From Chloroflexota bacterium (GTDB lineage: Bacteria; Chloroflexota; Anaerolineae; Promineifilales; Promineifilaceae), in NCBI GenBank assembly GCA_018004935.1, contig JAGNBF010000014.1, positions 1-32,466 of the forward strand: DNA of 32,466 bases, given 5' to 3'. The notes beneath the pieces are model-generated. The model searched no databases. It saw only the letters and a list, made by a program, of their open reading frames with translations, and was not told the origin of the DNA. A program made the translations under genes and the position numbers. Shown piece by piece: positions 1 to 32,466 of this stretch (its first letter is position 1; each line of letters starts with the position of its first letter).

Positions 1-314
1 AAATGAACCCATCCCCCTAGTGATTCCCCCCAGCGGGAAGGGGGAACCCTATCTACGGGCAAAATGGGGTGTAACACACCCCATTTTGCCCGCCTGGGAA
101 AACTCCCCGCCCCTGGGGGCGGGGGTGGGGGTGGGGGAAAAGCGGCTTGCTCACCAAAATGAACCCATTCCCCTAGTGATTCCCCCCAGCGGGAAGGGGG
201 AACCTAATCTATGGGCAAAATGGGGTGTAACACACCCCATTTTGCCCGCCTGGGATAACTCCCCGCTCCTGGGGGCGGGGGCGGGGGTGGGGGAAACTCC
301 GCGTAGGCAATCAC
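1..314. repeat. Tandem duplication of a ~156-bp unit (two copies, ~95% identical). Each unit contains a perfect 16-bp-stem hairpin (57-91 and 213-247) next to a G/C palindrome CCCCGCCCC-n-GGGGCGGGG. I call this 'family A'.
   Basis: Direct reading. 1-156 and 157-300 align base-for-base with a few substitutions. The hairpin is gggcaaaatggggtgt-aac-acaccccattttgccc. Confidence 0.85.
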
Positions 315-5187: not shown

Positions 5188-5318
5188 ATTTCGGGGTCTT
5201 TGGGATTTCAGGGGGTTGACACCATCTGTAGGGGCAACCCTTGTGGTTTGCCCTCGGCGGGGCAGGCACAAGGCCAGCCCCTACATGTAGCCGCACCCCA
5301 CGAATTCCGAAAGAACCA
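5188..5318. repeat. Family-B palindromic MITE-like element (~120 bp). Other copies are at 13690-13812, 17995-18095 and 28190-28300. Partial copies are at 1966-2010 and 21617-21660.
   Basis: The shared ends are ggttcttggg(g/a)atttc(a/g)(g/t)ggggt ... accccgcgaattc(t/c)gaaagaacc. The interior has paired hairpins (gggcaacc/ggttgccc and ggcaggcacaagg/ccttgtg). The interior of the 13690 copy is inverted relative to the 5188 copy. Confidence 0.8.
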
Positions 5319-8123: not shown

Positions 8124-8427
8124 ATTTCCTATTCGACTCTGGCGAATTTGTACACAACCTCTGGACGTAGCACAGCCTTTCCAGGCGGTGTGTTCTCTGG
8201 TAAAACAAAAAACGCCAATGACGAGTTTCCTAGAAAAAAAGGGAACTCCAGGAACTGAGAAAAACTCATAGGATTGGAGATTAAATAACTTGAACATTTG
8301 CTGTGGCCGGTCTCCTGACCGTGCCACTTCCAGCGAACAAGTTATTTAGTTCTCCTTCCATAGGAACTCACCCCAGTTCCCATGAGTTTCCAGAGTTCCT
8401 ATGAGTTCCCACGTTCAGGAGTTTTCC

Positions 8428-10254: not shown

Positions 10255-10563
10255 GCGCCTGTTGGGTTAGGTTGTGCGCCGTTTTTGTGGTTATGAAGTG
10301 GGATGGGCGGGAGATGGGTCACAGTGCATAAGGCCTGAGGGCTTGCTCGCAAAATAATGTTTGAGTTTGCTGTGGCCGATCTCTCGACCGAGCCACCCCA
10401 GGGGCAGGAAACTTTTTTGGGTGCCGTTTTCCGGGGCGAAAGTCCCGAAAAACGGCACTGTTGAACGCCCCTTCTCGTGGGGAATTGTAGGGGGATAAGT
10501 GTCTTTTGTGGTGTGGGCCAGCACCCTGATAGCCTGAACTTAGCGAAGGTTAGCCCTGTATAG

Positions 10564-13519: not shown

Positions 13520-13680
13520 GTAACTGTTCAGTTGTGTCAATTCAGCTACCATCCCGCCCGGTCGTTTTACGACTGGCTATGGCGACAAAGGCCGTTGACC
13601 TGGTGTTTTAGCTTGTAGGGCTTCGTCCATTGAGTCTGGCAGTTTGATCGCCGGGCGGGGTAACTGAACACGTATACCTG
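13520..13680. repeat. Family-C MITE-like element (~140-160 bp) with terminal inverted repeats (TIRs) GTAACTGTTCAGTT...AACTGAACRCKTAC. Other copies are at 2525-2640, 16895-17040 and 24780-24920. Fragments are at 18215-18260, 30275-30320 and 31500-31560.
   Basis: The shared core is cccgcccggtcgttttacgaccgggcta(c/t)ggttacaaaggccg(c/t)tggcctgg(g/t)gttttagcccgca.ggc...agcccggcggtttgaccgccgggc.ggataactgaacgcttaca. Internal perfect stems are ccggtcg/cgaccgg and gcccggcgg/ccgccgggc. Confidence 0.8.
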
Positions 13681-13823
13681 TATACACAAAAGTCGGGGTT
13701 TTTGGGAATTCAGGGGGTTGACACCAGATGTACGGGCTGGCCTTGTGCCTGCCCCGTGTAGGACAACCGCAAAGGTTGCCCGTATCCCACGAAATCCGGA
13801 AGACCCAAAAGTCGTAAATCCCT

Positions 13824-14531
13824 TTACCCACCCGAAATCTGAATCAGGTTTACCAACGCATCCCGATCGCGAATGGTGAAATGGCGACCACTGACATCTA
13901 CCCATTTAGAGCGCCGGAAGCGCCCTAATGCTTTGTTGATACTCACCCGTGTTCCCCCGGTCATTTCTGCCAGGTCAGTTTGGGTCAGGGAAATATCAAT
14001 CTCAATGCCATTTCCGGCCGGTTTGCCATATTGATCGGCCAACCGCAGGAGGGTGCGGGCCAACCGTGCTGGCAGATCCAAAAAGAAGATATCACTAAGC
14101 TGATTGTTCAAAACACGTATGCGGGTCGCCATTACCGAAAGGACGTGATGGGCAATCCCAGGGGTGTTATCCAGAAACAAGTTGAAGGTATGGCCATCCA
14201 GGGTATACGTTTCGGTAGGTTCGATGGCTTCAGCGGTTGCGGAGCGGGGGGAAGAATCAAGCAAGGAAAGTTCACCGAAGAAATCTCCTGGCCCTAAGAT
14301 TGCCAGGAGTGCTTCTTGCCCATCTGGGTTGCTGTAGGAGATTTTTACCTTACCACTGGTAATAATGTAGAGTAGACCACCCGGATCACCCAGGTGAAAA
14401 ATGATCTGGTCGGTGTGGAAACGACGCAGAAGCAGTTTTTCGGCAAGTGAAGCGGTTTCTTCAGCATTCAGGCGGGCAAAAAATGGCACCTGTTGTAAAA
14501 CATGGGCCGCAGTTTTCTTGGGCTGGCGCAT
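13824..14531 (-). CDS. Crp/Fnr-family transcriptional regulator (cNMP-binding domain plus C-terminal HTH)
   Basis: 'GDPGGLLYIITSGKVKI...GELSLLD' is a cNMP-binding fold. 'TQTDLAEMTGGTRVSINKALGRFRR' is an HTH. GGAGGA lies 10 nt upstream of the ATG. Confidence 0.85.
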   Translation of the reverse strand: MRQPKKTAAHVLQQVPFFARLNAEETASLAEKLLLRRFHTDQIIFHLGDPGGLLYIITSGKVKISYSNPDGQEALLAILGPGDFFGELSLLDSSPRSATAEAIEPTETYTLDGHTFNLFLDNTPGIAHHVLSVMATRIRVLNNQLSDIFFLDLPARLARTLLRLADQYGKPAGNGIEIDISLTQTDLAEMTGGTRVSINKALGRFRRSKWVDVSGRHFTIRDRDALVNLIQISGG

Positions 14532-14639
14532 TGTTCCTCATTCCTCCATTTTCCTGTGTGATCAGGAAATGCACCACCTACTTTAACACAAATTCTATGA
14601 CCTATGCCAATTTTCTTGCAGAAATTGTAAGGGTGATGG

Positions 14640-15115
14640 TCTACGCGGATTTCCCCCACCCCTAACCCCGCCCCCAGGGGCGGGGAACTTTTAGTGGGCG
14701 TTTTTCGCGGGCATTCGCCCGCGAAAAACGCCCACATTGTTTTTTCCCCTTCCTGCGGGGAATGGTTAGGGGGATGGATTATGGGGCGTGCGGATTTTCT
14801 CTGCCTCTAATCCCGATCCCAGGGGCGGGGAACTTTTAGTGGCCGTTTTTCGCGGGCATTCGCCCGCGAAAAACGCCCACATTGTGTTTTTCCCTTCCTG
14901 CGGGGAATGGTTAGGGGGATGGGTTATGGGGCGTGCAGATTTTCTCTGCCTCTAATCCCGATCCCAGGGGCGGGGAACTTTTAGTGGGCGTTTTTTCCCC
15001 TTCCTGCGGGGAATGGTTAGGGGGATGGGTTATGGGGCGTGCGGATTTTCTCTGCCTCTAATCCCGATCCCAGGGGCGGGGAACTTTTAGTGGGCGTTTT
15101 TCCCTTCCTGCCGGG
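14640..15115. repeat. Array of 4 tandem family-A units (~146, 144, 114 bp, then a truncated unit). Units 1-2 carry a 17-bp-stem hairpin. Units 3-4 have it precisely deleted.
   Basis: Each unit begins ccaggggcggggaactttt. The hairpin is gggcgtttttcgcgggc-att-gcccgcgaaaaacgccc at 14696-14733 and 14841-14878. Units 3-4 read ...gggcgttttttcccc..., lacking the hairpin. Confidence 0.85.
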
Positions 15116-17413: not shown

Positions 17414-17817
17414 TTGTTTGTGCCATAGGGGTACACATTTATATAGTTTCCTTTTCCCCTTTAGCTACAAAATCATTGTTGATTAAATAGCCTTGTGTTA
17501 TGATGCACCATCCTTGAAAAAGGGTGTTTTATGGGGATCCATAGACAGCAATCACACTGGTGTGCGTGTTGGAGAAACTGTTTTTCTCGCTGATTGCTGT
17601 TTAACCAGGAAACTCATCCCTGTGCCAGGGTATTGTGCCCTTCTCATACTATTCTCTCCAGGTGAGTGCCTGAAAATAACTTCCCAGTTTTGATCTGACA
17701 GGTTTCCGAAAATCTGTACAGTCTGGGTGAAACTTATTTTGAACCTACTGAAAAAAGGAACGTTCCTTTTTCCGTAAGTTCATTTTTGGGCGATTACGTA
17801 TCTTCTCAATATTTCGG

Positions 17818-17860
17818 GGTAAACGAGGCCTGAGCTTGTCGAAGCCTCGGGTTGCCTTCG
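17818..17860. repeat. Family-D hairpin repeat (16-20-bp stem, 'gagcttgtcgaag...cttcgacaagctc'). Other copies are at 21526-21576 and 28008-28050. A half-copy is at 17008-17040.
   Basis: cctgagcttgtcgaag-cctcgggttgc-cttcgacaagctcagg is a perfect 16-bp stem. The 21526 copy has a 20-bp stem with 1 mismatch. Confidence 0.8.
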
Positions 17861-18483
17861 ACAAGCTCAGGCAACGGCTTACAAGCCCAGGCAACAGGCT
17901 TAGCAGTTACGAGGTATGGTTCAAAAGTCGAGATACGGTGCTTAACAATATGTAGGGCGATTTGGTAAAGGGGGTGTTTCATTTTGGTTGAAAGGAAGAA
18001 AATAAGTTCTTTGGGGTTTCGTGGGGTACGGGCAACCCTTGTGGTTGCCCCACACGGGGTAGGCACAAGGCCAGCCCGTACATCTGCTGTCAACCCCTTA
18101 ATTCTCAGAGACTTATTATTCAACTCATTTGAAACATACCCTGTGCCTAATCGTCCTACATATTTGTAAAGCAGACCTGAACCATGCCGTTACGAAAATA
18201 CGCGATTACTTATAAAGCCAAGTTTACGACCGGGTAACGGTTTGGACAAGCCGCAAGCACTATTTCTCTGGGTGATTTGTTTTTTGTGGACGGGCAAGGG
18301 AAAGCCATGAACGGTGATCTGGCTTAAATTGGTTGTTTCAGGGTCTTTTCAATCAGGAGATGGGTGACTTTGTATTTGCCCACCAGGGCGATTTGAGGGG
18401 CGCGTTTCTTCTGGTTGCGAAGATGCTTGTTTTAGTTTTGTTTGTTGTTGAAAAGAACAGTATTCACGATGGAGGAGGTTTTT

Positions 18484-21093
18484 ATGCAGTTTTTTGCTCG
18501 TTGGGGACGGTTCGCGGCCGCGATCCTTTTTGTTGCCTTTGGTGTCTGGGTTATTTCTATCCTGGCCACCCCTACCCGCACGACAACATCTGTTCAAGAC
18601 AGTGTCGCCGCTTTGGCTCCAGGCCGTTCTGGCGATGGTACTGGTGCTACCGATGAATTAGCCGCTCAAGACATTCAATTAGTTTATGGTGATCCGGTTC
18701 TACCGGCCAAGGTCAACCTGGCCGACGTGCCCAGCCGCGTTGCTGAGGTAGACACCCTATATCAACGTTATCTGAATGGCGACATCCGCGAAGTCAACGA
18801 AGGGCCAGTAGACGAAGCACTCTTCTTTGATCTGTTAGCCGAATCCGCCAAACAGGGGGTTGATCCTACTGTACAGAATTATGATGATAGCCTGGCCCCG
18901 TTGGGCATTTTAGGTGGGGGAGCCAGTTTTAAATCTATTGATTACACCCAATCCCAACAAGGTGTTCCGCCGGATCCAGATATTATGGTTGGGCGGGATC
19001 ATGTTGTGGTGGGAGTCAATACCAGCTTTCAGGTTTTTGATAAAAGCGGCAACAGCCTGTATGGCCCGGTACTGTATGCTGATTTTTGGGGCGCGAATTG
19101 TGGTACAGGCAGTAATGTGGTCATGTTTGACCCCTATTCTGTGTATGATGAAGAAAACAGCCGCTACGTCTTGGGTATTACCGCTTATGATCCTAATGTG
19201 AATGGGGGTGACAACGGTTGGGCCTGTATGGCCGTTTCACAAACGGATAGTGCCACTGGTAGCTGGTATCTCTACTCTTTTGATGGTAATCCTGGCACAG
19301 GAACCGATTATTTCTTTGACTACCCCCATATCGGGGTGGGGCAGGATGCGTTGTATATGGGGGCCAATATGTTCGGGGCGGCCTTTACCCGTAACCATGT
19401 CCTGGCCTTTCAAAAAGATGCTATGTATGCTGGCACTTCTGCCAGTTATGTGAAATTAAATGTTGCCTCCACTTACTTCACCTTACAACCGGCCAAACTG
19501 AAAGGGTTTGCCAGTGGTGGCTGGCCGACGAGTACCACGGAAGCGCATTATTTTGTGGATGCTAATTATGGCAATAACCAGACCGCGCTTCATGTATGGC
19601 GGTTCAGTAACCCTTGGGGCGCGGCCGCGATGACGTTGGCTGGTACCTTAACTGTGAACAGTTACAGCCTGCCGGTGAGCCAGCCGCAACTGGGTGGCAG
19701 TAATATTCAAGGCAATGACAACCGTCTGCTGGATGTGGAATATTGGGGCGGGTATCTGTGGGCCACGCATGCCGTAGGTTGTAATCCTGGCAGTGGTACC
19801 GTGAACTGTATTCGCTGGTATCAGATTGATGTTCGCGGGGCGACACCGACGCTGGTCCAACAAGGAACATTTAGCAGTGCCAGTAATTATCGTAGTTTCC
19901 CCGACCTGGCGGTGAACCGTTGTGGCGATATGTTGGTAGGTTATACCCGCACCAGCACCACAATGTATCCTGGTGTGTATGTGGCTGGGCGTGAAGCCGC
20001 CGATGCCGCCGGTACGCTGAAGAGTGAGACATTGGTAAAAGCCGGTGAGGATTTCTATACGGCGTATGATAGTGTGCCCCGCCGTTGGGGTGATTATACG
20101 GGAATGGCCCTGGACCCGGATGGTGTGACGTTCTGGTATGTGGGCGAGTATTCGCGGCCGCAGACTACCGCCCGTTGGTCTACCTGGGTTGGTTCCTTCA
20201 CCTGGTCTGGTTGTACTGTCGGTGGCCCCACCCCCACCCCCGTCGGGCCTACACCTACCAATACACCCATTGTCCCCACAGCTACTCCCACCAATACCCC
20301 CGTTCCCCCAACCGCTACACCCACCCCGACCGGTGGTAGCCAGATTTACGCTGGTTCCACTACCAGTGGTGCGGCTGGCGGCGTCGCCTTTGATAATGAC
20401 GACATCCTCATTTACAACACCAGTTCAGCCACCTGGAGCCTCTACTTTGATGGTTCAGATGTGGGCCTGGGCAGTGCCGATGTGGATGCATTTGAATTAA
20501 TGAGCGATGGCACTGTACTGATCAGCCTGGCGGCTTCCTTCTCCGTAACCGGTTTGGGTACAGTGGCCGATGCCGACATCGTGCGCTTTACGCCCACTTC
20601 CACGGGCAGTACCACCGCCGGAACTTTCTCCTGGTACTTTGATGGCTCAGATGTGGGGTTGACAACGACCAACGAAGACATTGACGCGGTGGAAATTCTG
20701 AGTGATGGCCGTATACTCGTTAGCACATTAGGCAACGTCAGTGTGACCGGCGCCTCTGGGGATGACAAAGACTTACTCGCCTTCACCCCCACGGCATTGG
20801 GAGCAACCACCAGCGGTACCTGGGCCTTATACTTTGATGCCTCAGATGTGGGTCTCACAGCGGCAAATGAGGATGTCAATGGTGTCTGGGTTGATAGTAA
20901 CGGAAACATTTACCTGACGACCATTGGTGCTTTTACCGTAACTGGGGCCAGTGGAGATGGCGCGGATATTTTCCGTTGTGTGCCAGGTTCTCTAGGTAGC
21001 ACCACCACTTGTACCTTTAGCCTCTACTGGGATGGTTCGGTGAATGGGTTTGCAGGTGAAGTCCTGGATTCGTTCGCCCTCGTACAACCGTAG
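18484..21093 (+). CDS. Large secreted or membrane-anchored protein. It has an N-terminal signal anchor, a ~480-aa beta-rich domain, a Pro/Thr linker and 3.5 C-terminal ~66-aa tandem repeats.
   Basis: The strong RBS GGAGGAGG lies 7 nt upstream of the ATG at 18484. The signal anchor is 'FAAAILFVAFGVWVISILA'. The linker is 'GGPTPTPVGPTPTNTPIVPTATPTNTPVPPTATPTPTGG'. The repeats carry 'GT(F/W)SLYFDGSDVGL...EDVDAVE..SDG.IL'. The track ORF begins at 18442. Confidence 0.7.
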   Translation: MQFFARWGRFAAAILFVAFGVWVISILATPTRTTTSVQDSVAALAPGRSGDGTGATDELAAQDIQLVYGDPVLPAKVNLADVPSRVAEVDTLYQRYLNGDIREVNEGPVDEALFFDLLAESAKQGVDPTVQNYDDSLAPLGILGGGASFKSIDYTQSQQGVPPDPDIMVGRDHVVVGVNTSFQVFDKSGNSLYGPVLYADFWGANCGTGSNVVMFDPYSVYDEENSRYVLGITAYDPNVNGGDNGWACMAVSQTDSATGSWYLYSFDGNPGTGTDYFFDYPHIGVGQDALYMGANMFGAAFTRNHVLAFQKDAMYAGTSASYVKLNVASTYFTLQPAKLKGFASGGWPTSTTEAHYFVDANYGNNQTALHVWRFSNPWGAAAMTLAGTLTVNSYSLPVSQPQLGGSNIQGNDNRLLDVEYWGGYLWATHAVGCNPGSGTVNCIRWYQIDVRGATPTLVQQGTFSSASNYRSFPDLAVNRCGDMLVGYTRTSTTMYPGVYVAGREAADAAGTLKSETLVKAGEDFYTAYDSVPRRWGDYTGMALDPDGVTFWYVGEYSRPQTTARWSTWVGSFTWSGCTVGGPTPTPVGPTPTNTPIVPTATPTNTPVPPTATPTPTGGSQIYAGSTTSGAAGGVAFDNDDILIYNTSSATWSLYFDGSDVGLGSADVDAFELMSDGTVLISLAASFSVTGLGTVADADIVRFTPTSTGSTTAGTFSWYFDGSDVGLTTTNEDIDAVEILSDGRILVSTLGNVSVTGASGDDKDLLAFTPTALGATTSGTWALYFDASDVGLTAANEDVNGVWVDSNGNIYLTTIGAFTVTGASGDGADIFRCVPGSLGSTTTCTFSLYWDGSVNGFAGEVLDSFALVQP

Positions 21094-21163: not shown

Positions 21164-21826
21164 GTATTCATCGCAAAATATAGCGCCTAAGAAAAAGATG
21201 TTGGGTTCTTTTGGAATTGGCGGTGGGTGGCACGGTCAGGAGATCCGCCACAGCAAAGGAAGACCAGCGACAGCAGGGGGGAAATTCAATCACGCTCAGA
21301 TAAGTTCCCGGCCCGCAGGGGCGGGGTTAGGGCGGGGGTTACTGGGGCCAATTGCCCCTGAGACTTGTCATAAAACGCTAATGACTACTTTCGTAATAGT
21401 GTCCTAGATTTCTGGATTCAGCACACTTTTCTTATGCTATAATGCCCAGCGAGGGGAATTCACGGCCTTTACATTGGTTTACCTCTGGTAAATTGTTATT
21501 ATTTTTCGTAACTATACACGTCCTCGAGGGCTGAGCTTGTCGAAGGTGGAGCCGGGCTTCGACAAACTCAGCCCTCGCTATACCCCACCTGTATAGATAC
21601 TATTTTTCAATCATAACGGTAAAGCCAGCGGTTCTTGGGAATTCAGGGGGTTGTCCGTACCCCTCGAAACCCCCAAGCGACTTACGCGATTGCTGGAGCG
21701 AGTCTTCTGACTGTGTTTTTGTGGCTGGGTGGGGACACAGCCACAGCCCGTTAAGTTCTATTCTCAATAAATATTCCTGAGCCAGCCGAAGCCTTCTTCC
21801 TGGCCCTCTCTGAAGCGAACCATACG

Positions 21827-24739: not shown

Positions 24740-24936
24740 ATCAGAGCAAGAAAAAGGTAAGCGTTCAGTCATATAAATTTATCCGCCAGACCCGCCCGGA
24801 CGTAAAACGACCGGGCTACGGTTACAAAGGCCGCTGGCCTGGGGTTTTAGCCCGCATGGCTTTATATGTTTAGCCCGGCGGTTTGACCGCCGGGTAGGAT
24901 AACTGAACGCTTACAGAAAAAGAAAAGGAATACACC

Positions 24937-25674
24937 ATGCCCCTTACACCAATGCAAACACAACGCAAATCCCTGCCCTGGGTCTGGCTTGCCCTGGCTT
25001 TACCCCCTATCCTTTTTCTACTGAGCATTATCTTAGCCTCAATTTATATCGGGTTTATCAACCAGGGAGATACCACGGTTATTGCCGAGCAAGTGTCCCA
25101 GGCAACGCCACAAATTCTGGTGGTGGTGCAAATTTTAATGCTCGGCCTGCTTTTGTGGGTGCGTCGGGCCAATGGGTTACGCTGGGCCGATTTAGGCTGG
25201 AAGGTGCACACGGGTCAAACAGTCGTCCGAGAACTGGTGTTAGGGGCAGTGATTGGCGCACCATTAGCCATGCTTTATGTCTTTGTCCTGTCCCCGCTGA
25301 TGGTTACACTACAACAGACGGTAGGCGATTATGTACCCCCCGATGAACTGCTCTCCTCATTGGGGGCCTCTGTTTGGCCCTTTTTCCTGGCCAATGTAGT
25401 CCTGGCTCCTTTTGTCGAAGAGAACATTTATCGGGGGTTTGCCCTGCCGCAATTGCAGAAGCGGTATCGGTTTCTGCCAGCGCTGGTGCTTTCTTGTTTG
25501 TTTTTTGGATTGCTCCATTGGGCCGGGGGATTTTGGTACATCATTCTGACGGGTGTGGTGGCAGGAGGGGTTTTGGCTGGTTTGTATGTATGGCGCGGCA
25601 ATATTTTGGCCCCTTTTGCCGCTCATCTCACACTCAACATTATCGAATTTCTGCTGATCAGGCTTCTGGTGTAA
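24937..25674 (+). CDS. CPBP-family (CAAX protease/Abi) intramembrane metalloprotease
   Basis: 'FVEENIYRGF' is the EExxxR motif. 'FFGLLHW' is the FxxxH motif. 'FAAHLTLN' follows. The protein is polytopic. Confidence 0.8.
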   Translation: MPLTPMQTQRKSLPWVWLALALPPILFLLSIILASIYIGFINQGDTTVIAEQVSQATPQILVVVQILMLGLLLWVRRANGLRWADLGWKVHTGQTVVRELVLGAVIGAPLAMLYVFVLSPLMVTLQQTVGDYVPPDELLSSLGASVWPFFLANVVLAPFVEENIYRGFALPQLQKRYRFLPALVLSCLFFGLLHWAGGFWYIILTGVVAGGVLAGLYVWRGNILAPFAAHLTLNIIEFLLIRLLV

Positions 25675-27903: not shown

Positions 27904-27937
27904 CTCCCGGTTTAGACCTGACAGGTTTTCGGAAACC
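27904..27937. repeat. Perfect 15-bp-stem hairpin of the 'gacc..ggttttcggaaacc..ggtc' family
   Basis: agacctgacaggttt-tcgg-aaacctgtcaggtct. Related copies at 2484-2517 and 17693-17724 keep the pairing with different stem bases. Confidence 0.8.
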
Positions 27938-28653
27938 TGTCAGGTCTTGACGGAATTTAATCTTTTACAGGCCCTAAGTGGAAAACAAGGTAACGACTAA
28001 ACCCGTTGCCTGAGCTTGTCGAAGGCAAACGGGCTTCGACAAGCTCGGCCCTGGAGAGGGTTAGTTGTTACAAAACAAGAACGAAAGTTCGCTATTTTAC
28101 CACAAATCAGGAGTACAGGCAGGGCGATCACCTACTCGTCTAGCAATTCTCAATTCAACCAACGGTTATGGAGATTAAACAAATTGGGTTCTTGGGGATT
28201 TCATGGGGTACGGGCAACCCTTGTGGTTGCCCCACACGAGGCAGGCACAAGGCCAACCCCTACATTTAGCCCCACCCCGCGAATTCTGAAAGAACCCAAA
28301 TTATACTTACTTGAGTTTAGAGTTCAGAGCCAAAGCTAGAGGGTTTTCCAGAGTAATTTCCTCTTGCTCTCTCCTCTCGCTCTAAACTCCGGTACTTACC
28401 ACGGTCATAAAATGACATTTTGTTGGCGGCAACTGCTGAGTAAGCCTGGGCAGAAGACCCATCCCCCTACCCCTTTCCAAAGGGAAGGGGGGAAACCGCA
28501 CCAGAAATAGTTCCCCGCCCCTGGGGGCGGGGAACTTTTGAAGAGCCGTTTTTTGCAGGCATTCGCCCGCGAAAAACGGCCCCAATTGCCCTACATGCGG
28601 TGAGCACCCTGGTCGCTGAGTTTGGCAAAGGCGATACCTGTGGTTTGGTTGTT

Positions 28654-31504: not shown

Positions 31505-32039
31505 ACATTATCGGGTGAGCAAACCCGCCCGGCGGTCAAACCGCCAGGCTTTCAGTAGTCGTGCAAAAATAACGTGGGTGGCACGGTCAGGCGACCGGCC
31601 ACAGCAAAGCGTTCAGTTAAATTCGGGTACCGTGTTGATTCGCCCATCCCCCTACGATTCCTGCCGAGAAGGGAGAAATACCAGGAGTGCCGGTTTTCGA
31701 GCGCACCGCCGCGCTCGAAAACCGGCACATTAAAAAGTTCCCCGCCTCTGGGGCAGGGTTAGGGGTGGGAGAAAATCCACGTATGCAATTGCCCCACAAA
31801 CCAGAGAAAATTACCGGGCAGGGGCTGTATTTTGTGTTAGAGTTGAGCAGAAAAAGCTGGTCAGCCAGGAAGCTATAGCTTTCAAGAAAAAGATTTTGGG
31901 TTTGTAGTAACCGCTTTAGCGGTCCCACGCTGGACGGCTAAAGCCGTTACTACCAACCAAAACCCCAAATGATTTTCTGAACATCTATAAGAAGCTGGTC
32001 AGCATTTCAGCCAGTCAGCACTTCGGCTGACAAGCCGAC

Positions 32040-32466
32040 CAGCTAAAATGCTGACAAACTATTCTTACAGGAGTTCCCCATGGATGGTATGCACACCAAG
32101 ATGGATGAAAATAACGCCACCATTTTTCATTCCTATCCGTGTTTTTTCCTATCCGTGTTTCCACCATCAGTGGCAATTTTCTCAGGAGTTCCCCATGTGC
32201 CTTTGGCACACCAAGAGGGATGAAAATCTGTAGGACGATTTGGTAAATCGTCCGGGCGATTTGCCAAATCGCCCTACATTTCGTAGGAGTTCCCCATGGG
32301 CCTATGGCACACCAAGATGGATGAAAATAACGCCACCATTTTTCATTCCTATCCGTGTTTTTTCCTATCCGTGTTTCCACCATCAGTGGCAATTTTCTCA
32401 GGAGTTCCCCATGTGCCTTTGGCACACCAAGAGGGATGAAAATCTGTAGGACGATTTGGTAAATCG
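32040..32466. repeat. Higher-order tandem array. It consists of 43-bp units (ggagttccccatgNgcctNtggcacaccaagaNggatgaaaat) alternating with two different inserts of 72 and 58 bp. Each insert occurs twice, so the array is a ~216-bp super-unit duplicated. It runs off the window end.
   Basis: Direct reading. Units lie at 32069, 32184, 32285 and 32400. Insert 1 is identical at 32112-32183 and 32328-32399. Insert 2 (32227-32284 and 32443-end) is a near-perfect ~50-bp palindrome made of two 9-bp-stem hairpins, ggacgattt-ggt-aaatcgtcc and gggcgattt-gcc-aaatcgccc. Confidence 0.85.

Follow-up and report, generated by a model that had tools for sequence, protein, structure and literature searches.

A palindromic intergenic repeat of wastewater Chloroflexota conserves the pairing, not the sequence, of its central stem

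In a 32,466-nucleotide stretch of Chloroflexota DNA (contig JAGNBF010000014.1 of assembly GCA_018004935.1; hereafter, the window), long hairpins recur whose stems differ in sequence from copy to copy. The long hairpin is the variable center of a ~135-bp palindromic intergenic repeat, which we call family A. Stem variants dispersed over different loci are separated mostly by changes that keep the two strands paired, whereas the changes seen at a single locus are all one-sided. The reading we prefer, and to which we give about an even chance, is that family A is a REPIN/MITE-like non-autonomous mobile repeat of the Promineifilaceae whose central stem must pair if the unit is to be copied.

How is a unit of family A built? 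Read in order, it comprises CCCATCCCCCTAA; a small hairpin, CCCCCTTCCC/GGGAAGGGGG; a spacer; the long variable hairpin, of 16 to 21 bp; AAAAGTT; the palindrome CCCCGCCCC tg GGGGCGGGG; and TTAGGGGTGGGGG. The left arm consists of CCCATCCCCCTAA and the small hairpin after it, the right arm of CCCCGCCCC/GGGGCGGGG followed by TTAGGGGTGGGGG. Both arms are GC-rich and conserved in sequence, carry one small hairpin each, and are imperfect inverted copies of one another. Their hairpins are near-invariant (the right one is CCCCGCCCC tg GGGGCGGGG in 37 of ~50 copies), in contrast to the central stem, in which pairing is conserved instead. Each arm hairpin has a tetranucleotide at its side. On the C-rich strand the left hairpin is preceded by CTAA or CTGA (occasionally CTAG or CTAC); on the G-rich strand the right hairpin is followed by TTAG. 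Imperfect terminal inverted repeats (CCCATCCCCCTAACCCC vs. GGGGTTAGGGGTGGGGG) close a four-way clover, into which whole units fold with z scores of -6.2 to -7.6. The outer flanks are further repeat modules, mutually inverted, producing nested palindromes of up to ~330 bp; these repeated, mutually inverted flanks obscure the true ends of the unit and any target-site duplication.

A stem scan (at least 12 bp, at most one mismatch) returned 17 hairpins in the window, against 0 to 2 in each of 20 shuffles. The long ones lie at 56-92, 213-247, 10421-10458, 14694-14735, 14839-14880, and 31687-31728, and the last of these, folded as DNA, reaches -25.6 kcal/mol (z = -9.6). Every hairpin quoted in an earlier, sequence-only reading of this DNA was recovered by the scan, although two of its positions were off by ~13 and ~7 bases (10408-10447 is properly 10421-10458, and 31694-31731 is 31687-31728). 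Two copies were absent from that reading: the hairpin at 14839-14880 and a degenerate one at 28545-28580, the latter detected by the family and covariance-model searches rather than by the stem scan. The same reading placed all copies beside one shared palindrome. The CCCCGCCCC..GGGGCGGGG palindrome does adjoin the copies, but in some of them only in decayed form. With up to three mismatches allowed, it gives 12 strand-matches at eight sites in the window, vs. 0.01 expected; the remnants near 10.4k and 31.7k have decayed too far for this search.

The window holds ~10 copies or remnants in 32 kb, all of them intergenic, among ordinary chromosomal genes (CHAD, MoeA, ThrRS, SPFH, dynamin-like GTPase, crp, histidine kinase, UvrB, LysR regulator, and threonine synthase); a search there for tRNA and tmRNA genes returned none. 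They comprise two head-to-tail arrays (1-300, continuing upstream in contig L050, and 14646-15101), one solitary copy near 10.4k and another near 31.7k, a composite spanning 28.45-28.6k, and a right-arm remnant at 21.3k. The intact solitary copy, identified by nhmmer downstream of threonine synthase (31638..31778, plus strand; clover z = -6.8), has the hairpin GTGCCGGTTTTCGAGCGC accgcc GCGCTCGAAAACCGGCAC at 31687-31728. The first array has four units in tandem and starts upstream of the window: its third and fourth units occupy 1..145 and 157..300, both on the plus strand, with hairpins at 56-92 (GGGCAAAATGGGGTGT aac ACACCCCATTTTGCCC) and 213-247, and two further units lie in L050 at 1298-1426 and 1449-1586. 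The second array is on the minus strand throughout. Its unit nearest the crp-like gene, 14646..14782, is intact (hairpin GTGGGCGTTTTTCGCGGGC / GCCCGCGAAAAACGCCCAC at 14694-14735; clover z = -7.6); the next, 14791..14927, has a decayed right arm and one one-sided change, a G:G mismatch, in its hairpin at 14839-14880; the third, 14937..15033, has its central hairpin deleted, leaving GGAAAAAAC joined to GCCCAC; and the fourth, 15042..15101, is truncated to a right arm and a hairpin remnant. An old, decayed copy with a truncated right arm sits between the convergent ThrRS and cold-shock genes (10393..10504, minus strand), and its stem at 10421-10458, extended into the 8-nt loop, has one T:G and one A:C mismatch. 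Only a right-arm remnant, the CCCGGCCCGCAGGGGCGGGG palindrome followed by TTAGGGCGGGGG, is left at 21288..21341 (plus strand). The composite joins a left arm and right palindrome (28453..28532, plus strand), between which a 36-bp hairpin has been precisely deleted at AAACC direct repeats, to an inverted half copy (28513..28596, minus strand) fused to it at the shared palindrome; the degenerate hairpin of this half copy, at 28545-28580, has a G:T and a C:A mismatch. The deletion in the composite can be read against contig L081, which is 99.97% identical and retains the hairpin TGGTGCGGTTTGGCGGGCG ga CGCCCGCCAAACCGCACCA missing at 28494-28500. Similar losses are found at 14937-15033 and in L038. 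Hairpins are also lost through slippage between short direct repeats.

How widely is family A distributed? When one genome per species was scanned for the 20-mer palindrome, 24 of the 49 matches listed belonged to Candidatus Trichofilum aggregatum. The lineage of this organism is Chloroflexota; Ardenticatenia; Promineifilaceae. Family A was found by nhmmer in all 21 of the Trichofilum loci tabulated, and at least 21 loci of a single MAG carry it. Among the matches listed, those outside this species (Methanoculleus, a Ruminococcus MAG, and others) have just the GC palindrome in common with it and were rejected as family A. A metagenome scan contributed 31 more short contigs, many of them terminating within the repeat. 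In all, nhmmer gave 86 non-overlapping matches; 61 copies with their central region were extracted from the window, Ca. Trichofilum aggregatum, and the metagenome contigs, and 28 distinct stems were compared. The same stem recurs at several unrelated loci, which we take, along with the intergenic placement, the tandem clusters, and the gaps in related genomes described next, as a sign of spread.

Seven loci carrying relatives of the crp gene (4-12 kb each) hold one partial orthologous copy between them, against ~10 copies in the 32-kb window. In the crp relatives (~90% identity), synteny is different, the array is absent, and no family A lies upstream of crp; in the thrC relatives (94% and 88% identity), the downstream DNA is unrelated and lacks family A. 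These differences in synteny and downstream DNA make target-site duplications unreadable, and no clean pair of filled and empty sites was found among the crp and thrC relatives. The contrast in copy number indicates that family A has expanded in particular lineages, and it has multiplied in wastewater Chloroflexota. A search of the literature on intergenic repeats and MITEs in Chloroflexi yielded no account of such repeats, and family A apparently has not been described so far.

The claim that different stems keep the same pairing was borne out by two alignments. The first, of 30 distinct hairpins, was built by MAFFT on sequence only, with no fitting to structure: 92.4% of cells pair, vs. 79.5% after shuffling (none of 500 shuffles reaches the observed value) and 40-54% when the partners are slid, and 10 of the 18 pairs show double-sided changes, with 20 further pair types. 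The second came from a covariance model, as the sequence-only reading had proposed; its 118 aligned matches give the same picture (91.7% of cells paired vs. 76.8% shuffled and 37-56% slid; double-sided changes at 13 of 18 pairs; 40 further pair types). RNAalifold recovered little structure from an earlier MAFFT alignment, in which the two arms had been gapped asymmetrically; a center-anchored set and the covariance-model alignment took its place. The stems occupy homologous positions, each filling the slot enclosed by the conserved arms, and a common frame is seen in most copies: a G/C clamp, then T4-6, then C/G-G..GGC. Within it the sequences vary widely (e.g., GTGCCGGTTTTCGAGCGC, GTGTCATTTTTCGAGGGC, GGCGCGGTTTTTCGGGGC, GGGCCGTTTTTCGCGGGC, TGGTGCGGTTTGGCGGGC, GTGCGGGTTATCGAGCGC, and GGGCAAAATGGGGTGT), and almost every stem is a perfect helix. 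Neither outcome that the sequence-only reading named as refuting it, stems at non-homologous positions or a lack of covariation, was observed. Divergence is greatest in the copies at 1-300 (GGGCAAAATGGGG), which the covariance model missed and which are tied to the family by position and the outer clamp GGGCA/TGCCC only. Inversion of the whole hairpin was rejected as the origin of this variant, since inverting a perfect palindrome cannot shift the A-run to the 5' arm. Family A is, then, one family in which pairing is kept and sequence is not, and its members are more than decaying copies of a single sequence.

Does this pairing reflect upkeep of each copy where it resides? On a minimum spanning tree of the 28 distinct stems, with one- and two-sided changes of a pair given the same cost, we counted 35 swaps in which both sides change and pairing survives, 12 symmetric base-pair indels, and seven one-sided changes. 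At single loci the changes are of another kind: in three comparisons, all seven in-place changes are one-sided. In four of six same-species contigs, which come from different samples, the 3' arm of the 31.7k hairpin shows a one-sided C>A change, a population polymorphism; orthologous copies that follow a ketoacyl-synthase gene in L083 and L084 have five differing stem positions without any compensation, and the L084 copy, which has four mismatches, has also lost its right palindrome; and adjacent tandem units show one uncompensated difference. Compensated changes therefore number 0 of 7 in place, a thin sample, vs. 47 of 53 between dispersed variants (hypergeometric probability ~4e-6, with the tandem-unit change assigned to the in-place class only). 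Since the in-place changes are all one-sided, copies decay where they reside, and whatever selection there may be does not bear on every resident. The filter on pairing appears to operate when copies propagate and not during their residence in the chromosome.

Compensation need not require selection at all. The sequence-only reading took conserved pairing to imply selection on structure; the pairing is indeed conserved, but on its own that inference is too strong, as template switching can compensate a change in one step. The signatures described for template switching are substitutions compensated in one step, insertions in the stem, and inversions of 4-nt loops (Monttinen & Loytynoja 2022, PMC8794818). 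A functionless stem might, accordingly, be kept near-perfect by template switching or extruded-hairpin repair, with the repeat itself spread by a DDE transposase or by unequal recombination, and several observations fit such a mutational origin. In nine flip pairs the stems are identical and the flanks run the same way, but the loops are reverse complements of each other (CTTC three times vs. GAAG twice; GAAT once vs. ATTC three times), ~20 of the 35 swaps are of transversion type, and the 12 symmetric indels are base-pair additions or losses on both sides; the mechanism and both signatures are documented (PMC8794818), and imperfect terminal inverted repeats of the kind carried by the units would suit spread by a DDE enzyme. 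Family A resembles the published cases in having both compensated changes and loop inversions. It differs in being a multi-copy DNA repeat whose in-place changes are uncompensated, whereas the published process concerns rRNA and other RNA genes, with selection at the RNA level (PMC8794818). The one-sidedness of all seven in-place changes, the four mismatches that persist in L084, and the mismatch allele shared by four of six contigs speak against a purely mutational account: mismatches that persist mean that arm-to-arm correction fails to keep residents perfect. One would also expect a passenger palindrome to disappear, and such deletions do occur, but in every expanding subfamily the slot still contains a stem of similar length and layout. 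Template switching as the sole cause thus conflicts with the uncompensated changes in place, and we regard that account as possible but doubtful, while template switching probably supplies part of the variation. The loop flip-flop and the transversion-type swaps nonetheless mean that selection on the stem may be weaker than our preferred reading proposes.

Is the helix selected as RNA or as DNA? The covariation signal looks DNA-level rather than RNA-level. Two further observations, the precise loss of hairpins between short direct repeats and the flipped loops on identical stems, likewise point to DNA-level behavior. A host RNA element—transcribed within neighboring mRNAs as a terminator, a 3'-end stabilizer, or a small RNA, its stem under selection as an RNA helix—would accord with the intergenic placement and with a mild excess of copies co-oriented with both neighbors (+E+ 12 vs. 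-E- 3); the remaining arrangements (+E- 7 and -E+ 6) mean that every orientation occurs, copies are also found between divergent genes and in tandem arrays, and resident copies decay. The minus-strand sequence CCCCGCCCC..GGGGCGGGG AACTTTT was flagged as terminator-like in three copies. As Rho-independent terminators, which are GC-rich stem-loops with a U/T tract directly after them, the hairpins were nevertheless rejected: one of the seven long hairpins in the window has a T-tail, the number of terminator sites equals the shuffle expectation, and in most variants, whichever strand is read, the inner stem is preceded by a T-run and followed by an A-run, opposite to the order in a terminator. 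Stem mismatches (six G:T, four A:C, and six others) show no wobble bias, and the transversion-type swaps (CG>GC, TA>AT, GC>TA) proceed without a G:U intermediate. Rfam 15 gave no match at the gathering score anywhere in the window. An E-value search of the 14.6-15.1k array returned only sub-threshold sRNA, miRNA, and CRISPR-repeat noise, and the best sub-threshold sRNA match, ncS035, scored 34.9 bits against a gathering score of 79, with Scr6925 and BjrC80 also appearing; these sRNA matches count on the side of an RNA element. The small-RNA role raised by the sequence-only reading is unlikely on the other grounds, and we judge a host RNA element of any of these types to be quite improbable.

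A DNA-level signal could also belong to the host: a cruciform or G-quadruplex, serving as a nucleoid, replication, or recombination signal or as a protein-binding site, might have been spread secondarily by recombination. The arms are conserved in sequence, every variant retains an A/T run between G/C clamps, and the right end, GGGGCGGGGTTAGGGGTGGGG, contains four G-runs (four matches vs. 0.02 expected), with a C-rich mirror at the left end. Set against this are the sharp copy-number contrast (~10 copies in 32 kb vs. one partial copy across the seven crp-relative loci), the absence of family A from the orthologous sites examined, and the decay and hairpin loss of resident copies, which together are marks of a selfish repeat rather than of a fixed host signal. 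We therefore think a host DNA site highly unlikely. An operator for a dimeric protein was rejected separately, the two half-sites changing together in many variants within one genome.

Among known mobile repeats, which does family A most resemble? Bacterial MITEs (Correia elements, ERIC/IRU, RUP, Nezha, and Chunjie) are intergenic and 100-150 bp long, with terminal inverted repeats that are imperfect; they form stable stem-loops and occur in many copies and subfamilies, and their defining marks are target-site duplications and a parent IS that shares their ends. Family A is similar in size, in its imperfect terminal inverted repeats, and in being intergenic, folded, and multi-copy; in the window and about 90 fetched loci neither a target-site duplication nor a parent IS came to light, and, to our knowledge, strong covariation limited to a central stem is no described hallmark of Correia/ERIC/RUP/Nezha/Chunjie-type MITEs. 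The BIMEs of Escherichia coli are mosaics of REP and linker motifs in which sequence-conserved REPs alternate in orientation. Family A shares with them mosaic, modular intergenic arrays and a palindromic unit with differing flanking motifs; unlike BIMEs, its tandem units run head-to-tail, and its outer modules are nested inverted repeats around a core. Elements of the IS200/IS605 type have subterminal imperfect hairpins, recognized as ssDNA, and lack terminal inverted repeats; family A has hairpins near both ends but also terminal inverted repeats. Integron attC sites were rejected on anatomy: tandem units are not separated by cassette ORFs, and the window ORFs scanned include no integrase.

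The closest likeness is to REPINs, which are REP doublets that form hairpins and are mobilized by RAYT/TnpA-REP (Bertels & Rainey 2011, PMC3116915). In REPINs the spacer hairpin, whose "compensatory changes ... are common", lies between two conserved inverted REPs, and units can cluster in tandem (PMC3116915). Family A likewise has two arms flanking a central hairpin, many copies per genome, a spacer conserved in pairing ability and not in sequence, alternative long-hairpin and clover folds, extragenic sites, tandem clusters that include the flanks, and populations of sequences within a genome. It departs from REPINs in that its arms are consistently unlike (CTTCCC type vs. CGCCCC type) instead of one REP copied; in that GTAG, the REP hallmark, is not consistently present 5' of its arm hairpins, the ends being rich in G-runs or C-runs; in the length of its central stem (16-21 bp, near-perfectly paired, with an A/T run inside); and in its host, a member of the Chloroflexota rather than of the Proteobacteria or Cyanobacteria. 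A REP-RAYT system has its cognate RAYT gene, for a Y1/HUH transposase, in the same genome, usually with its REPs on either side. Group 4 RAYTs have been reported as common in the Caldilineae, another class of Chloroflexota (PMC5581495). A tblastn search with E. coli RayT over the window and fetched loci (~0.4-0.5 Mb) gave no RAYT candidate. Its best match (E-value 0.25, in L054) falls in an ORF that, judged from its sequence, resembles a sugar-isomerase/AP-endonuclease-type TIM-barrel unrelated to RayT. Nor was a TnpA (Y1) of the IS200/IS605 type found in those ~0.4-0.5 Mb; no transposase or Y1_Tnp domain was found in the window ORFs scanned; and a screen for HUH..Y motifs near the copies returned only the CHAD gene, not a candidate. 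No insertion or excision event of family A was observed. We suggest that family A works like a REPIN and do not claim its membership as proven.

Of the roles listed in the sequence-only reading, a REP/BIME-like or hairpin-mobilized repeat fits best. Beyond the observed anatomy, covariation, in-place decay, hairpin excision, and lineage-specific abundance, we infer mobility itself, a single-stranded intermediate, and an enzyme. The unit would fold into a four-way clover in single-stranded DNA, its arms serving as sequence-specific recognition sites for the mobilizing enzyme, and the only role of the central stem would be to provide a helix of set length that keeps the arms in register. If copying is limited to copies with an intact stem, spreading lineages would come to differ by compensated swaps and symmetric indels. 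Once inserted, a copy would be unmaintained, accumulating one-sided mutations or losing an arm or, through slippage, its hairpin. Replication template switching inside the palindrome is probably the source of some of the compensated variants and of the inverted loops. A long shot, in our estimation, is that family A and its nested outer palindromic layers represent an undescribed mobilization system, in which an enzyme other than a RAYT would recognize cloverleaf single-stranded DNA with G-run and C-run ends, and the central palindrome would flip-flop and copy arm to arm during replication, much as parvoviral hairpin ends do. Were this so, it would be a self-correcting DNA replicator that is neither REPIN nor MITE.

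REP/REPIN-type repeats, small and palindromic, have been studied extensively in Proteobacteria and some Cyanobacteria. As a REPIN/MITE-like element, family A is a small palindromic intergenic mobile repeat of a known type, in a phylum for which we found no such description in the literature on Chloroflexi repeats and MITEs. In wastewater Promineifilaceae it is abundant enough to break metagenome assemblies, and it gives rise to false ORF calls; its copies could also mark strains of these filamentous bacteria for typing. If the mobilizing enzyme were identified, the known host range of hairpin-guided DNA transposition would be widened and its known sequence rules extended. The repeat also amounts to an unusually clean natural experiment, in which dozens of stem variants occupy one fixed frame, compensated between lineages that have spread and uncompensated in residents. 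That contrast distinguishes a filter at the copying stage from maintenance in place, and it lets template-switch mutation be weighed against selection for compensatory change. Together with the loop flip-flop, the contrast between compensated and uncompensated changes is the most useful part of these findings.

How is a family-A unit, the palindromic intergenic repeat of about 135 bp with two conserved inverted arms around a variable central hairpin, bounded and altered in this genome? Its right end, GGGGCGGGG(TTA/GT)GGGGTGGGG, contains four G-runs and is, judging by its sequence, a G-quadruplex-type motif, matched four times in the window (116-136, 272-292, 21318-21338 and, on the minus strand, 14654-14674) against 0.02 matches expected. 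On the left, the unit ends in the C-rich mirror of this motif, so that a G-run block lies at the 3' end of each strand. Family A is often itself the core of longer nested palindromes, as seen within 100 bp on either side of the copies at loci outside the window (L004, L045, L024, L048, and others), and the different outer flank modules that surround it are copies of one another in inverted orientation. In one composite, about 330 bp long, the ends are ATTAAATAACYTRCRGGA inverted repeats. Further loci cited for these arrangements are L015, L039, and L012, and L036, L016, and L073. The repeat GTGGCACGGTCAGG.GACCGGCCACAGCAAAG, at 8286-8327, 21225-21262, and 31578-31619, adjoins family-A copies, is also found in related contigs (L063, L088, and L089), and may be a further module of the family-A mosaic.

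The central hairpin is subject to both inversion and loss. On identical stems, we found loops that are mutually reverse-complementary—CTTC/GAAG and GAAT/ATTC—with flanking spacers in the same orientation (L004, L060, and L001 versus L008 and L063; L053 versus L078, L073, and L005), which is a flip-flop inversion limited to the palindrome. Loss is seen at 28494-28500: L081 (25-90), a contig 99.97% identical to the window, has an intact central hairpin at this site, whereas 36 bp have been precisely deleted from the window between AAACC direct repeats. Past the shared palindrome, the window carries an inverted half copy in place of the TTAGGGG end. This difference between the window and L081 is due to strain variation or else to mis-joining at the repeat.

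Family A also forms head-to-tail arrays. One array of four units, with a period of about 150-156 bp, comprises window positions 1-300 and positions 1298-1586 of the outside contig L050; another, also of four units, occupies 14646-15101 with a period of about 145/106 bp. Because the latter includes truncated and hairpin-deleted units, tandem duplication followed decay. The array at the start of the window is crossed by ORFs and called genes of 100-182 aa without a Pfam match, on the plus strand at 20-322 and on the minus strand at L050 1462-2010 (about -138 to 410 in window coordinates), which probably represent spurious gene predictions arising from the G/C-run repeats. At 14611-14878, family A matched three bacterial sRNA families of Rfam below threshold: ncS035 (34.9 bits; gathering score 79), Scr6925 (29 bits; gathering score 50), and BjrC80 (23 bits; gathering score 80). 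These families may themselves be based on GC-rich palindromic repeats.

The array at 14646-15101 directly adjoins a crp upstream region (gaaaattggc...tttgtgYtaaagtagRc; 14560-14645, minus strand) that is conserved in relatives of about 90% protein identity, as compared with their crp loci (L083:9826-10000, L084, L086, and L088), and that looks from its sequence like a common promoter or leader. Downstream of thrC in an 88%-identity relative (L097:7167-7504), GCAGGTT and CCGCCACT units in long tandem runs fill the region, and family A is absent.

What other repeats does the window hold? The octamer palindrome GCGGCCGC occurs at 46 sites across it, compared with 0.84 expected from shuffles, mostly within genes (e.g., 773, 1049, 5457, 23803, and 31385) and frequently in the longer form CGCGGCCGCG (repeats D15 and D19). 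It resembles HIP1, the highly iterated palindrome of cyanobacteria, in its iteration but not in its sequence. Two other hairpin families, with stems CTGAGCTTGTCGAAG... and AGACCTGACAGGTTT..., lie at 17824-17872, 21531-21577, and 28010-28048, and at 17690-17736 and 27914-27947; in the reverse of family A, their stem sequence is conserved and their loops vary. Inside an 883-aa ORF without a Pfam match (18442-21093), four internal repeats (D14; 20431-21050) spaced 192-195 bp apart suggest that a domain of about 65 aa is repeated. Further intergenic families are D2 (2526-2657, 13567-13698, and 24806-24937) and D8, D9, and I1-I3 (5239-5317, 13696-13829, 17996-18132, and 28164-28314), and a 216-bp tandem repeat closes the window (32063-32466). 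The intergenic space in this genome is largely made up of repeats.
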